Source: a virus
Strand: one strand, 5' to 3'
DNA: 32,000 nucleotides
Virus record (IMG/VR): IMGVR_UViG_3300031576_000027
Span: 11,319-43,318 of that record
A program made the position numbers and the translations under genes. Of the stretch, positions 11,153-28,802 are shown piece by piece. Under the pieces are notes generated by a model that searched no databases, was not told the origin of the DNA, and worked only from the letters and a program-made list of their open reading frames with translations. How positions within the stretch are numbered: the stretch's first letter is position 1; each line of letters begins with the position of its first letter.

Positions 11153-11525
11153 GGACAGAGGTTCCTTTACTGGATGGGCCGCGGCCTCCTGGTGCGACAC
11201 CAGGCGCTGTTCGTGATGCAGGCGGGTGGGACAGTGACCACGACCGGCTCATACCCGGTGCATCCCGGTGCGATCCCGGGGCCTGCTACCAAGCGCGCCA
11301 AGGCCGGGCAGGCTGCGGCGCAGATCCTATCCACCAACAGCGGACGACCCGACCGTGACGAATCCGGGAGGGAGCGACGGGCCAGGGCAACCTGGCCCGT
11401 TGTCTGTCCAGGGGTTGACGCTGGGCTGGGACATGTCACCATGGTGGTGGTCGTCAGGCGCCGTCAACGGCGCCCGTCGGACCTCCTGTCAGGGGGCCCC
11501 GCTCGTCACGGGGCCCCCGTTTTGT
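11153..11525 (+). ncRNA. candidate structured non-coding RNA / structured 3' UTR ending in an intrinsic terminator
   Basis: No credible ORF. Stable hairpins include GGGCCAGG-GCAA-CCTGGCCC (11379-11398, GNRA loop) and GGCGCCG-tcaa-CGGCGCC (11457-11474). Possible closing helix 11153-11165 / 11479-11490. Terminator at 11492-11525. Confidence 0.4.
11492..11525 (+). terminator. canonical rho-independent terminator
   Basis: GGGGGCCCCG-ctcgtca-CGGGGCCCCC followed by GTTTTGT. Confidence 0.85.
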
Positions 11526-25392: not shown

Positions 25393-26289
25393 ATGACCAC
25401 GCTGACCAACCTGGACGATGCCAAGGCCGCTGCAGCACGGGGCGCCCTCTTTGTCGTGTCGCACTCGGGCGGCAAGGACAGCCAGGCGCAGATGATCAAG
25501 GTGCTGGAGATCGTGCCCGCCAGCCAGGTCGTGGTGGTCCATGCGGACCTGGCCGAGGTCGAGTGGGCCGGGACCCGCGAGCACGCGGAAGCCCAGGCCA
25601 AGGCGGCCGGCGTCCCCTTCGTCGCGGCCAAGGCGCACACCAAGGCCGGCGACGACCTGACCTTCCTGGGCATGGCCGCCCGCCGTCACGCGCAGCGTCC
25701 CGAGGTCCCCAGCTGGCCGTCCAGCAGCACCCGGCAGTGCACCAGCGACCTCAAGCGCGGCCCGATCGCCCGCGAGGTCCGGGCCTACGCCAAGGCGAAC
25801 GGGTACACGGAGATCGTGATGGTCGAGGGCCTGCGCGCTGCGGAGTCCCCCAAGCGCGCGAAGTTGGACGCCTGGACCAAGGACGCGCGCAACAGCACGG
25901 GTGGCCGGACCTGGTGGGTGTGGCTCCCGATCCATCAGATGACCACCGCCGAAGTCTTCGCGACGATCAAGGCCGCAGGCCAGGAGCCGCACTGGGCGTA
26001 CGCGGTCGGCAACGATCGGCTCAGTTGCACCTTCTGCATCATGGGGTCGCGCGGCGATGCGCAGCGCGGCGCCATCTACAACCCGGCGCTCTTTGCCGCC
26101 TACGTCGAGATGGAGCGCCGGACCGGCTACACCGCGCACATGAGCCGCAAGTCGATCGAGGAGGTGGCTGGGATGACCGTGGCGCAGGCGCAGGCCGCCA
26201 ACGCGGACATCAAGGCTGGCCGGCGGCCGGGGCTCCCGGTGATCCAGGACGAGCCGGCGCGGGACATCCCGCCCTGCATGGGACGCTAA
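25393..26289 (+). CDS. PAPS-reductase-family PP-loop ATP pyrophosphatase-like protein
   Basis: VSHSGGKDS PP-loop near the N-terminus, CTSDLKRGP, EGLRAAES, and C-terminal LSCTFC, in the order typical of the PAPS reductase/DndC-type fold. Apparently leaderless ATG 8 nt after TATAGA. Confidence 0.8.
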   Translation: MTTLTNLDDAKAAAARGALFVVSHSGGKDSQAQMIKVLEIVPASQVVVVHADLAEVEWAGTREHAEAQAKAAGVPFVAAKAHTKAGDDLTFLGMAARRHAQRPEVPSWPSSSTRQCTSDLKRGPIAREVRAYAKANGYTEIVMVEGLRAAESPKRAKLDAWTKDARNSTGGRTWWVWLPIHQMTTAEVFATIKAAGQEPHWAYAVGNDRLSCTFCIMGSRGDAQRGAIYNPALFAAYVEMERRTGYTAHMSRKSIEEVAGMTVAQAQAANADIKAGRRPGLPVIQDEPARDIPPCMGR

Positions 26290-26304: not shown

Positions 26305-27531
26305 ATGACCCGAACGCACGCAATCAAACTGGGCAGGACGCGGGGGCGCGCGCGCGTCTACCTGCAGGGGCGCTGGCTGGTCAAGGCCGGCTTCCAGGTG
26401 GGCGCCGCGCTGGCGGTGACCTTCGGTCAGGGCCGGGTGGTCCTGGCGCTGGGCGGCGATCGCACGGTCAGCGGCAAGTCGGACGTCCCGGTGATCGACG
26501 TGACCGGCGCGCAGCTGGAACAGGCGCTGTCCGGGGCATCAGACCTGGTCGTCAGGGCGCGCAACGGCCAGCTGGTGATCACGCCGTCCAGGACGGCGGC
26601 CAAGCTCGCCAGTCGGTGCCGCAACGGCAAGGAGGGCGCGATCTTCGCCGGGGCCGGGCTGCTGTCGGAGGCGGCGCGGCAGGCGGGATACGCCCCGGCC
26701 TGGGCGATCGAGTGGGACGAGCGGTACGCGGACGCCTACGAGCGCAACCATCCCGGCGCCGTGATGCACTGCCAGTCCGTCAGCGAGGTGGCGGTGGCGG
26801 ACCTGTCGCCCGTCGAACTGCTGACCATCGGCGTCCCGTGCGAGCCGTTCAGCACCAAGCGCCAAAAGGGCGGACAGGTCCCGGAGGCGCACGAACTGGG
26901 CGACATGACCGCCTGGGCACTGATCCTCGTGGACGCCGTCAACCCGGCCACGGTGGTGGTGGAGAACGTGCCGGGATACCTGACCAGCGGGGCCGGCATG
27001 ATCATGCAGCACGCGCTGCGCCGGATGGGCTACCAGGTGGAGGCACGGGTGATCGACCCCGCGGACCACGGCCAGCTGGCCGGCCGTCGCCGGGCAGTGA
27101 TCCTGGCGACCAGCGGCGCGGCCCCGCGCTTCCAGGCTCCGTCCGACAGCGTCGCACGCTTGGGCGATGTCCTGGACCCCGATGCCGGCGAGTGGTTCGA
27201 CCGGACCAGCAAGCCATGGGTCTTCGCCCACTGGGATCGGCAGCGCGCCAAGGGCAACGGCTTCACAGAGGGCCGGGTGCTGACGGCGGACACGACGCGG
27301 GTGCCGTGCCTGTCCAAGCGGTACCTGAACGGCCAGGGCGATGGCGTGGTCGTGGCCCACCCGACCAAGCCGGACACCTACCGCTGGCTGACGCTGGGCG
27401 AGATCCGCACGCTGCACGGCGTGCCTGAGCACTACCAACTGCCGGGCGCCAAGACCGTCGCGGGCGAAGTGCTGGGGCAGGCGGTTGTGGTCCCGGTCTG
27501 GCGGGACCTGATCCTGGCGCAGCGCGGCTAA
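26305..27531 (+). CDS. dcm: DNA (cytosine-5)-methyltransferase with N-terminal SymE/AbrB-like domain
   Basis: Motif I FAGAGLL, motif IV GVPCEPFS, motif VI VVVENVPG, motif VIII QLAGRRRAVILAT, motif IX RWLTLGEIRTLHGVPEHY, motif X GQAVVVPV. N-terminal RVYLQGRWLVKAGFQVGAALAVTFGQGRVVL. Confidence 0.9.
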   Translation: MTRTHAIKLGRTRGRARVYLQGRWLVKAGFQVGAALAVTFGQGRVVLALGGDRTVSGKSDVPVIDVTGAQLEQALSGASDLVVRARNGQLVITPSRTAAKLASRCRNGKEGAIFAGAGLLSEAARQAGYAPAWAIEWDERYADAYERNHPGAVMHCQSVSEVAVADLSPVELLTIGVPCEPFSTKRQKGGQVPEAHELGDMTAWALILVDAVNPATVVVENVPGYLTSGAGMIMQHALRRMGYQVEARVIDPADHGQLAGRRRAVILATSGAAPRFQAPSDSVARLGDVLDPDAGEWFDRTSKPWVFAHWDRQRAKGNGFTEGRVLTADTTRVPCLSKRYLNGQGDGVVVAHPTKPDTYRWLTLGEIRTLHGVPEHYQLPGAKTVAGEVLGQAVVVPVWRDLILAQRG

Positions 27532-27551: not shown

Positions 27552-27591
27552 TAATTTTCTTGTTGCACCGACCTTGGACCTGTGGCACATT
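27552..27591 (+). promoter_or_regulatory. conserved AT-rich promoter motif, copy 2
   Basis: TAATTTTCTTGTTGCAC: TTGCAC (27563-27568), 17 nt, CACATT (27586-27591), then ACAGGAGGACGGT-ATG. Confidence 0.6.
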
Positions 27592-27614
27592 GGGATCGTA
27601 GACAGGAGGACGGT

Positions 27615-28802
27615 ATGACGGTCACCAAAGAAGCGGTCCTGGCAGCGATCAAGCAGTGCGACGAGATGGGCGCCGAGGCCTTCTGCAAGGCGCACGGGTA
27701 CAGCCTGTCGGTCAAGTACGTGCTGGTCCACGGCGGCAAGCCCTACCCGTCCAAGGCCATCCTGGGCGTGGCGGCCGGCCTGCGCGGCCGGGACTTCTCG
27801 GGTGGCGCCTACCACGTCGGCCGGGTCCTGGGCCGGCTGGGCTTCAAGGTGCGTGGCTTCACGCGGACCGTGGCGGCCATGTTTGCCGCGGCCGCGGCGC
27901 TGGGTTACGCGGGCGTCGCGGAGGCTGAACTGGCGGACCGTCCGGTGGCCTACTTCGCCAGCGGGTCCAACCACGCGGGGGAGATCGCCGGCTGGGCCAA
28001 GATCGGGCACGACATCGGCGTGGCCGCCCCCGAGATCAACGCCGCGGCCGAGGCGGCGCTGGGTCGCCTGGCCGGCACCGACATCCAGATCTTCGTGGAC
28101 AGCGGCGCCTTCTCGGAAGTCGCCTTCGGGGCTGACGGTCCCAAGGTGGTCAAGCCGATCAGCGACGCGGACTGGCGGGAACGGATCGACCTCTACAAGC
28201 GCCTGGCGGCCAAGTTGGGCGACCAGCTGCATGTGGTGGCGCCGGATCAGGTGGGCTTCCAGCAGGAGACGCTGGACCGGCTGACGCGCTACGCGGATGA
28301 CATGCGGCAGCTGCACGCCATGGGCGCGCGGGTGCTGGTCCCGATGCAGAAGGGCCAGATGACCCAGGCGGATTTCGCCAAGGCCGCGGATGCGGTCCTT
28401 GGCTTCGACTACGTCCCCAGTTTGCCGCTCAAGAAGGCCGCGACGACGGTGGCCGAGGTCGCGGCCTTCGTCCAGGCGCGGCAGCCCCGCCAGTTGCATC
28501 TGCTGGGGCTGGGCGTCAGCAACCGCAACGCCGAGGATTACTTCGACGCGGTCCACGGCAACGCCCCGGACTGCCTCTTTACCTGCGACAGCAACCTGAT
28601 CCGGGCTCACGTCGGTCGCGGCGGATCCAAGGGCGACCGTAAGCCGGGCCGGCTGACGATGGCGATGGACGTGCTGGCGCGGGTCTTCGATCAGGCGACA
28701 TGGACGACGGCGCGCCGCAAGGCGGCCGGTATCGTCCTTTGCTTCGGTTGGGGCACCTGGATCGCCACGAACGCGGGCGGCGCAGCGCCGCAACTTGGCT
28801 GA
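27615..28802 (+). CDS. TGT/DpdA-like DNA or RNA base-exchange (transglycosylase) protein fused to an N-terminal reader-like domain
   Basis: ACAGGAGGACGGT precedes ATG 27615. The C-terminal ~290 aa carry IFVDSGAFS, VVAPDQ, LHLLGLGVS and LFTCDSNLIRAHVGRGG, in the same order as the TGT motifs DSGGFQ / DEC / MGVG / FDCV.PTR.AR.G. N-terminus: KYVLVHGGKPYPSKAILGVAAG..FSGG..LGRLGFKV. Confidence 0.55.
   Translation: MTVTKEAVLAAIKQCDEMGAEAFCKAHGYSLSVKYVLVHGGKPYPSKAILGVAAGLRGRDFSGGAYHVGRVLGRLGFKVRGFTRTVAAMFAAAAALGYAGVAEAELADRPVAYFASGSNHAGEIAGWAKIGHDIGVAAPEINAAAEAALGRLAGTDIQIFVDSGAFSEVAFGADGPKVVKPISDADWRERIDLYKRLAAKLGDQLHVVAPDQVGFQQETLDRLTRYADDMRQLHAMGARVLVPMQKGQMTQADFAKAADAVLGFDYVPSLPLKKAATTVAEVAAFVQARQPRQLHLLGLGVSNRNAEDYFDAVHGNAPDCLFTCDSNLIRAHVGRGGSKGDRKPGRLTMAMDVLARVFDQATWTTARRKAAGIVLCFGWGTWIATNAGGAAPQLG

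Follow-up and report, generated by a model that had tools for sequence, protein, structure and literature searches.

The stretch of DNA analysed here (the window) comprises 32,000 nt, positions 11,319 to 43,318, of IMG/VR virus record IMGVR_UViG_3300031576_000027, and carries on its + strand an open reading frame (ORF) of 395 aa whose product joins the N-terminal 'head' domain of a type IV restriction enzyme to a barrel of the tRNA-guanine transglycosylase (TGT)/DpdA superfamily. The ORF is real: it runs from an ATG at 27615 to a stop codon ending at 28802, is preceded by the Shine-Dalgarno sequence AGGAGG (27604..27609, + strand) with a 5-nt spacer, and has a G+C content at third codon positions of 0.89, while an in-frame GTG at 27582, upstream of this ATG, has no Shine-Dalgarno-like signal. 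The protein P0003 is identical over 395 aa and also starts at ATG 27615, and the translation of 27615-27900 agrees with the sequence quoted in the initial annotation. The window belongs to a complete viral record of 78,961 bp with direct terminal repeats and 68% G+C. Among isolated phages, the best matches to its large terminase come from unrelated phages and do not exceed 40% identity. When the whole protein and each of its halves were compared with Pfam, PHROGs, and NCBIfam, the sole match was a weak one to the SCO5918 family (E 0.029).

Residues 1-82 (27615..27860, + strand) are the head module, which stands ahead of the HNH nuclease in type IV restriction enzymes of the ScoMcrA kind. With phmmer, the PDB sequences yielded one real match, to residues 7-97 of ScoMcrA (5ZMM; E 3.3e-6), and a profile built from 82 family members matched ScoMcrA residues 5-97 at E 1e-17. 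The AlphaFold2 (AF2) model of residues 1-92 (pLDDT 90) consists of two helices, a β-hairpin, a helix, a Gly-rich FSGG loop, a helix, and a strand, in this order. Foldseek matched this model in the PDB only to ScoMcrA chains (E 1.6e-4, probability 1.0, TMq 0.66-0.69), and VIA, run exhaustively over 48,161 representative chains, gave 5ZMM a Z of 10.1 with an rmsd of 2.8 Å over 77 residues at 35% identity. Neither program found a second fold relative, the next best Z being 3.0; TetR-type helix-turn-helix and winged-helix rows at Z 2.3-3.0 were rejected as noise. Positions 6-102 of the PADLOC model mREase_IV match the head as well (E 2.7e-7), and the protein carries the label PF26345, named ScoMcrA_N via ESM Atlas and Pfam 38.1, an assignment that comes from precomputed labels and ESM Atlas rather than from a local Pfam scan. 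The initial annotation had proposed a McrA-type N-terminal module at this place, and the sequence, profile, and structure matches bear it out. The folded domain ends at 27860; the end first proposed, 27900, falls inside an Ala-rich helical linker (residues 83-107; 27861..27935, + strand) modelled at a lower pLDDT of 75-78.

ScoMcrA (Sco4631) is built of four domains, the head, a sulfur-binding domain (SBD), and two further ones of the SRA-like and HNH kinds (PMC6224610). The head is small, flexibly attached, and was assigned no function (PMC6224610), and this 2018 structure paper is the only literature that we found on the ScoMcrA head domain, PF26345, or ScoMcrA_N. The head of the viral protein is clearly homologous to it in sequence and fold, occupies the N-terminus as in ScoMcrA, and has in common with it the pattern Y-x-S-K-A...G-V-A...F-S-G-G...L-G-F. 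The two differ in that the loop from GVA to FSGG is 8-9 residues shorter here, that a TGT-fold barrel takes the place of SBD-SRA-HNH as the partner, and that the barrel-fused family has Pro (YPSKA) where most heads have Asp (YDSKA). The FSGG loop itself (residues 61-64; 27795..27806, + strand) is nearly invariant across the head family. K47, A48, and A53 are invariant in 32 short, largely head-only members, in which FSGG is again nearly invariant, and K47 is the sole invariant column among 136 head proteins. The head of the 395-aa protein is strongly basic, with a net charge of +7 and an isoelectric point (pI) of 9.8.

The motif YPSKA (residues 44-48, at the hairpin/helix junction; 27744..27758, + strand) had been taken in the initial annotation for the Tyr-Pro-x-x-Ala element of the phosphorothioate (PT) pocket of ScoMcrA, and the head accordingly for an SBD relative. 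The protein would then couple the reading of PT or 5-methylcytosine (5mC) to the placing of another mark, together with a DndC-like neighbour. There is a superficial resemblance: helix 8 of the ScoMcrA SBD reads YPFWA (residues 164-168), and H116, R117, Y164, and A168 line its sulfur pocket with P165 at the bottom (PMC6224610), so that the two motifs have the five-residue Y-P-x-x-A pattern in common. SBDs, moreover, often adjoin heads in the same proteins, and a gene of the PAPS-reductase/DndC superfamily lies two genes upstream. The alignments already contradict this reading, however. YPSKA aligns not to Y164-A168 but to Y48-D49-S50-K51-A52, inside the ScoMcrA head and more than 110 residues upstream of the sulfur pocket, which belongs to another domain; no equivalents of H116, R117, Y164, P165, and A168 were found. 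K47 and A48 of the motif are invariant in the whole head-domain family, in which YDSKA outnumbers YPSKA by 87 to 23 at this position, and Pro is typical only of the barrel-fused family (76 of 81). The 5ZMM match is confined to residues 5-97 and does not reach the SBD (ScoMcrA residues ~100-290); neither this SBD nor any other solved one was matched. No part of the protein matched an SBD or SRA chain at E <= 10, whether as a single sequence or as a profile, and neither domain is among the listed Foldseek and VIA matches of the head model. The SBD (5ZMO) has ten helices and a three-stranded sheet, with its pocket at residues 116-117 and 164-168, whereas only 25 residues separate head and barrel here, and the 395-aa protein lacks it. 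Pfam 38.1 treats ScoMcrA_N (PF26345) and DNA-SBD_ScoMcrA (PF26340) as separate families that often occur in the same proteins, which is probably why the two came to be confused. We therefore rejected the head as an SBD relative and regard sulfur reading by it as highly improbable. Nothing in our data indicates that the head is a reader of DNA modifications.

The remainder of the protein (residues 108-395 and the stop codon; 27936..28802, + strand) is placed as a divergent branch of the DpdA/TGT superfamily that lacks the zinc-site motif, and the attachment of the head to a DpdA-like protein, as first proposed, is thereby supported. The AF2 model of the whole protein (pLDDT 92.4, pTM 0.91) contains an eight-stranded (β/α)8 barrel from residue 108 onwards. 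The top Foldseek matches of this barrel are TGTs (E 3e-6, probability 1.0), VIA gave the archaeosine TGT a Z of 14.4 and the Zymomonas mobilis and human TGTs about 13.8 (range 13.5-14.4 over 200-240 residues), and the ESM Atlas structure rows include TGT clusters. Bacterial and archaeosine TGTs are thus the best structural matches, at Z ~14, but there is no similarity to them at the sequence level: hhalign against E. coli Tgt gave nothing, and the TGT signature TDSGGFQ is replaced by FVDSGAFS. With DpdA there is a profile match. An alignment of 46 diverse barrels, down to 20% identity, matched the profile of 9g-type DpdA in hhalign (94.6%, E 7e-8, 84 columns), pairing FVDSGAFSE with FLDSGAFSA and VAPD-VG-Q with VLDGIGDP. 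The broader alignment was needed, the result against a single 9g DpdA sequence or with a close-family profile being merely suggestive.

All family-invariant residues of the barrel sit at the C-terminal ends of strands in the model and alignment. They include FASGSN (residues 114-119), a family-invariant motif at a barrel strand end; FVDSGAFSE (residues 160-168; 28092..28118, + strand), in which D162 and F166 are invariant in the 46 diverse relatives; VVAPDQVG (residues 207-214; 28233..28256, + strand), which contains D211; QKG at the end of strand 5 (residues 245-247; 28347..28355, + strand), with Q245 and G247 invariant in the close family; HLLGLG at the end of strand 7 (residues 295-300; 28497..28514, + strand), of which H295, the Leu, G298, and G300 stand out and the His, Leu, and Gly are invariant in the broad family; and CDS at the end of strand 8 (residues 324-326; 28584..28592, + strand), whose D325, invariant and conserved in at least 90% of the broad set, is a candidate nucleophile. 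In the DpdA of Salmonella Montevideo, Asp95 acts as acid/base, stacking on the base falls to Phe99 and the reading of its edge to Asp130, and Asp256 is the nucleophile (PMC10164549). D162 and F166 align to DSGAF of the 9g DpdA and reproduce the D-x3-F spacing of Asp95 and Phe99 exactly, and D211 aligns to D114, the second Asp of the 9g DpdA (LDGIGD), as a candidate counterpart of Asp130; the span from D162 to D325 is 163 residues, against 161 between the first and last Asp in S. Montevideo DpdA. F-x-D-S-G-A-F-S, the second Asp motif, C-D-S near strand 8, and the similar spacing thus join the TGT-fold barrel and the profile match as likenesses to phage (9g type, DpdA1) and S. Montevideo DpdA. 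The protein differs from DpdA in carrying the head, in lacking the large Ins8, and in having no visible DpdB partner.

Word-index searches returned more than 440 full-length relatives of ~380-430 aa (85-97% query cover), all with PF26345, so the fusion occurs in hundreds of proteins, which are mostly viral and metagenomic. A barrel-only profile found 470 relatives; among the best 120, the head is present in about one-third, and the others consist of the barrel alone (~275-300 aa) or of a barrel extended at the C-terminus. In a FastTree tree of 208 barrels, 115 of them head-bearing, the presence of the head changes only 4 times, against a mean of 68 when labels are shuffled, a sign that the fusion arose long ago, once or very few times, and has been kept since. 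The initial annotation had allowed that its novelty would be lost if a DpdA family routinely carried this domain in a known role: routine carriage is what we found, a known role is not. IMG/VR holds 72 related loci, including 10 full fusions. A tblastn search of 50,697 GenBank phage records found no relative. Head-less barrels also occur in metagenome-assembled genomes (MAGs) of Acidobacteriota, Myxococcota, and Alphaproteobacteria. On MAG contigs of Acidobacteriaceae (L005, L007, L010, L019, L020, and L021) such a barrel lies in a conserved block with a TOTE-type AEP-primase, a PLD-like nuclease, and a Rad52-family annealing protein, a block that is probably one prophage lineage. Some head-plus-barrel proteins have an extra 100-340 residues without any Pfam match (L058:8033-10189, L048:4404-6524, and L061:8033-9541), mostly at the C-terminus but N-terminal in P0148, and many head-less barrels of 360-490 aa are likewise extended at the C-terminus.

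Single viral ORFs that span 2000-5400 aa contain distant barrels together with LPD23, LPD38, or DUF3560 (in IMG/VR, loci L077, L084, L085, L089, L090, L092, L097, L102, L103, L109, and L110), and these products are therefore large polyvalent proteins. One of them, the 3378-aa P0144, contains an intact head (2024-2106) followed by a barrel (2140-2411). Proteins of this class, which phages and conjugative elements encode (PMC5512222), thus resemble the present protein in holding distant copies of the barrel and once the whole head-barrel unit, and differ from it in that the window's protein is encoded by a free-standing 395-aa gene. A text search of the 2017 survey of polyvalent proteins found no mention of a TGT-like domain (Iyer et al., PMC5512222).

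What the head does may be judged from the company it keeps. HMMER searches over 1.84 billion representative proteins found 1257 proteins with the head domain at E <= 0.001, and the partners were counted from the Pfam annotation of the 136 top matches. These partners are NOV_C and HNH (11 proteins each), HNH_2 (10), EVE (6), DUF6884 (5), MrcB_N (4), AAA_5 (3), SRA (2), and HEPN, HD, Mrr_N, PUA-like, GIY-YIG, and ResIII (1 each). In as many as 128 of the 136 there is a match to PADLOC's type IV restriction model mREase_IV over its first ~90 positions. The head is thus joined to many catalytic domains that act on DNA (HNH, HNH_2, NOV_C, GIY-YIG, HEPN, and DUF6884) and is also found alongside EVE, SRA, MrcB_N, Mrr_N, and PUA-like domains; proteins that act on DNA in phage-host conflict account for almost all of its occurrences. 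Some proteins have the head and a catalytic domain only, namely head plus HNH (236 aa) and head plus DUF6884 (224-233 aa). The head family has a median pI of 9.8 and a net charge of +4.6, while the attached barrel is neutral (pI 7.5). The partners, the basic charge, and the conserved K47, A48, and FSGG point to the head as an accessory part of DNA-acting enzymes. DUF6884 has a YaaA-like fold and is a predicted DNA base flipper (PMC11701544). Two of its head-bearing members, P0143 and P0176, match PDC-M57A, and P0143 has weak matches to PADLOC DpdC, so that the head is joined both to a DpdA-related barrel and to a fold with weak similarity to DpdC.

Two other readings of the head have to be set against an accessory role on DNA. 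In the first, the head does not bind nucleic acid but gates the catalytic domain, through regulation, oligomerisation, or a small ligand. The flexibility of the head in the ScoMcrA crystal, where dimer contacts were attributed to the other three domains (PMC6224610), is counted in its favour, as are the many stand-alone copies of 80-140 aa and the bacterial proteins with tandem or mid-protein heads (P0158, P0164, P0153, and P0168), some of which have two. In P0164 an MrcB_N reader domain lies between the two heads, and a McrB-type AAA_5 GTPase follows downstream. An invariant Lys and a Gly-rich loop could also bind a phosphate-bearing ligand. Yet the partners are nearly all DNA-acting, some two-domain proteins have nothing else with which to bind DNA, and the surface charge is strongly basic; we consider this reading unlikely, though not far-fetched. 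The pTM of the whole-protein model suggests that the head holds a fixed position on the barrel, a feature that does not discriminate between the readings.

In the second, the head reads a DNA mark or lesion other than sulfur, for example the 5mC made by an adjacent methylase or a mark of the host, and steers the barrel to marked sites. The concentration of the domain in modification-dependent restriction architectures would fit this, and the near-invariance of K47, A48, and FSGG suggests a defined ligand site; a C5-methylase gene adjoins the barrel gene both here and in L061. However, heads of the ScoMcrA type sit by dedicated readers (SBD, SRA, EVE, and MrcB_N), which makes a second reader less needed, and in ScoMcrA the binding of PT-DNA was attributed to the SBD and the recognition of 5mC to the SRA-like domain, the head being given no task (PMC6224610). 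The fold of the head is unlike that of any known reader, and a methylase is nearby in only ~9 of the ~95 loci examined. This reading therefore seems to us rather improbable.

The methylase gene of the window (26305-27531, + strand) encodes a C5-cytosine methyltransferase with a SymE/AbrB-like N-terminus (PF08845, residues 18-47, E 1.4e-8), the methylase core starting at residue 113. Upstream of it lies the PAPS-reductase-family PP-loop gene (25393-26289, + strand), which matches BrxP of BREX in PADLOC (1.2e-19) and phrog_424 (5e-41) better than DndC (4e-7) or SspD, both of which are weak. A PP-loop relative occurs within 8 kb in 11 of the ~95 loci, the 10 with a full fusion not being among them, which speaks against the DndC-superfamily neighbour as a functional partner, as the initial annotation had envisaged it, and further against sulfur reading. 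Both genes are sporadic neighbours, not conserved partners. No neighbour is conserved across the ~95 loci, the clusters obtained being either shadow ORFs on the antisense strand or confined to a single prophage lineage. In other viral contigs the neighbours are a primase-helicase, RecT, AAA_24, and a C5-methylase, a phage DNA-metabolism module of replication and recombination genes; known phage DpdAs, too, are placed among phage DNA-metabolism genes.

Taken together, the data lead us to propose a two-domain enzyme whose basic head acts on DNA and whose barrel exchanges a DNA base, leaving an anti-restriction mark. The basic head would hold the enzyme on DNA or select its sites. The barrel may then flip a base into a pocket formed by D162, F166, D211, and D325, with D162 as the putative acid/base, F166 stacking on the base, and D325 as the putative nucleophile, and might exchange, or possibly only remove, this base in double-stranded DNA by a covalent double displacement of the DpdA type. 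The incoming base would be supplied by the host or would not be a 7-deazaguanine; it would not come from a phage-encoded preQ0 pathway. We infer that the phage could mark its own DNA in this way as a counter to restriction. We hold this proposal with confidence that is evenly balanced between acceptance and doubt.

Several observations weigh against the proposal. DNA binding by the head is a prediction, and the DNA complexes described for ScoMcrA were solved with SBD-SRA and SBD constructs (PMC6224610); many relatives of the barrel, moreover, function with no head attached. The match to the DpdA profile is partial and covers only the first three motifs, and D325 is a putative counterpart of the Asp256 nucleophile (cf. 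SCDSSSW in 9g DpdA) by motif order and strand-end position, not by superposition. The barrel has no match at E <= 10 to Pfam TGT (PF01702), Pfam DpdA (PF23859), or PADLOC DpdA; neither PF23859 nor Beta_protein (PF14350) has a match anywhere in the window's genome, and PF23859 has none in the genomes of five distant barrel relatives. The miss by curated models is weak evidence, because even the DpdA of phage 9g (L115:3007-3960, - strand) is matched by no family of the Pfam copy used at E <= 0.001, neither TGT nor PF23859; Pfam-based screens therefore miss phage DpdA-like enzymes. The structural zinc site is conserved in S. Montevideo DpdA (PMC10164549), whereas the 82 family members have no zinc-site motif CxCxxC...H and no conserved Cys/His cluster after D325, C272 being their only nearly invariant Cys. 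Known phage DpdAs usually travel with preQ0 genes, although some phages carry DpdA alone (PMC10516641). No QueC, QueD, FolE, or TGT was found in the complete genome to which the window belongs (QueE was not searched), QueD was found in none of 45 related viral records but in all five control records with a 9g-type DpdA, and QueC gave one marginal match in 50 related viral records. These data therefore give no support to a 7-deazaguanine as the substrate.

The missing zinc-site motif and the lack of base-synthesis genes accompanying the family would also suit a barrel that is a DNA glycosylase or another TGT-fold hydrolase, damaging or processing DNA such as that of the host, or an enzyme acting on RNA. 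The presence of the barrel in polyvalent proteins of the injected type, beside other effector domains, would agree with such an activity, and so would the nucleases that are the usual partners of the head. Against it stand the motifs D-S-G-A-F, D, QKG, HxxGxG, and C-D-S, which parallel those of DpdA, whose exchange reaction uses these residues, and a position among replication and modification genes that resembles that of phage DpdA. We think a glycosylase, hydrolase, or RNA-acting barrel quite improbable. As the alternatives to base exchange by a DNA-bound enzyme concern in part the head and in part the barrel, they are not strictly exclusive of one another.

Both domains of the protein are of kinds already known, the head being a Pfam family and the barrel a member of the TGT/DpdA superfamily; their combination was not found in the literature searched. 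We tentatively suggest, as a possibility more doubtful than the enzyme proposed above, that the head-bearing, head-less, and polyvalent relatives form a large undescribed branch of DpdA/TGT enzymes that installs or removes a DNA base without a virus-encoded 7-deazaguanine pathway, and that the head would then be the first recognised portable DNA-targeting module common to host type IV enzymes and phage modifiers. If true, this would amount to a new kind of phage DNA base replacement.

In summary, a domain otherwise met in the restriction enzymes of hosts is joined here to a phage enzyme by which DNA bases are probably rewritten. For the ScoMcrA head, this two-domain enzyme, with no accessory part other than the head, offers a tractable test case. 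For annotation, the lesson is that a YP..A motif in a head domain must not count as a phosphorothioate pocket. The family is common in viral metagenomes without the genes that define known DpdA systems, and may point to an undescribed DNA modification.

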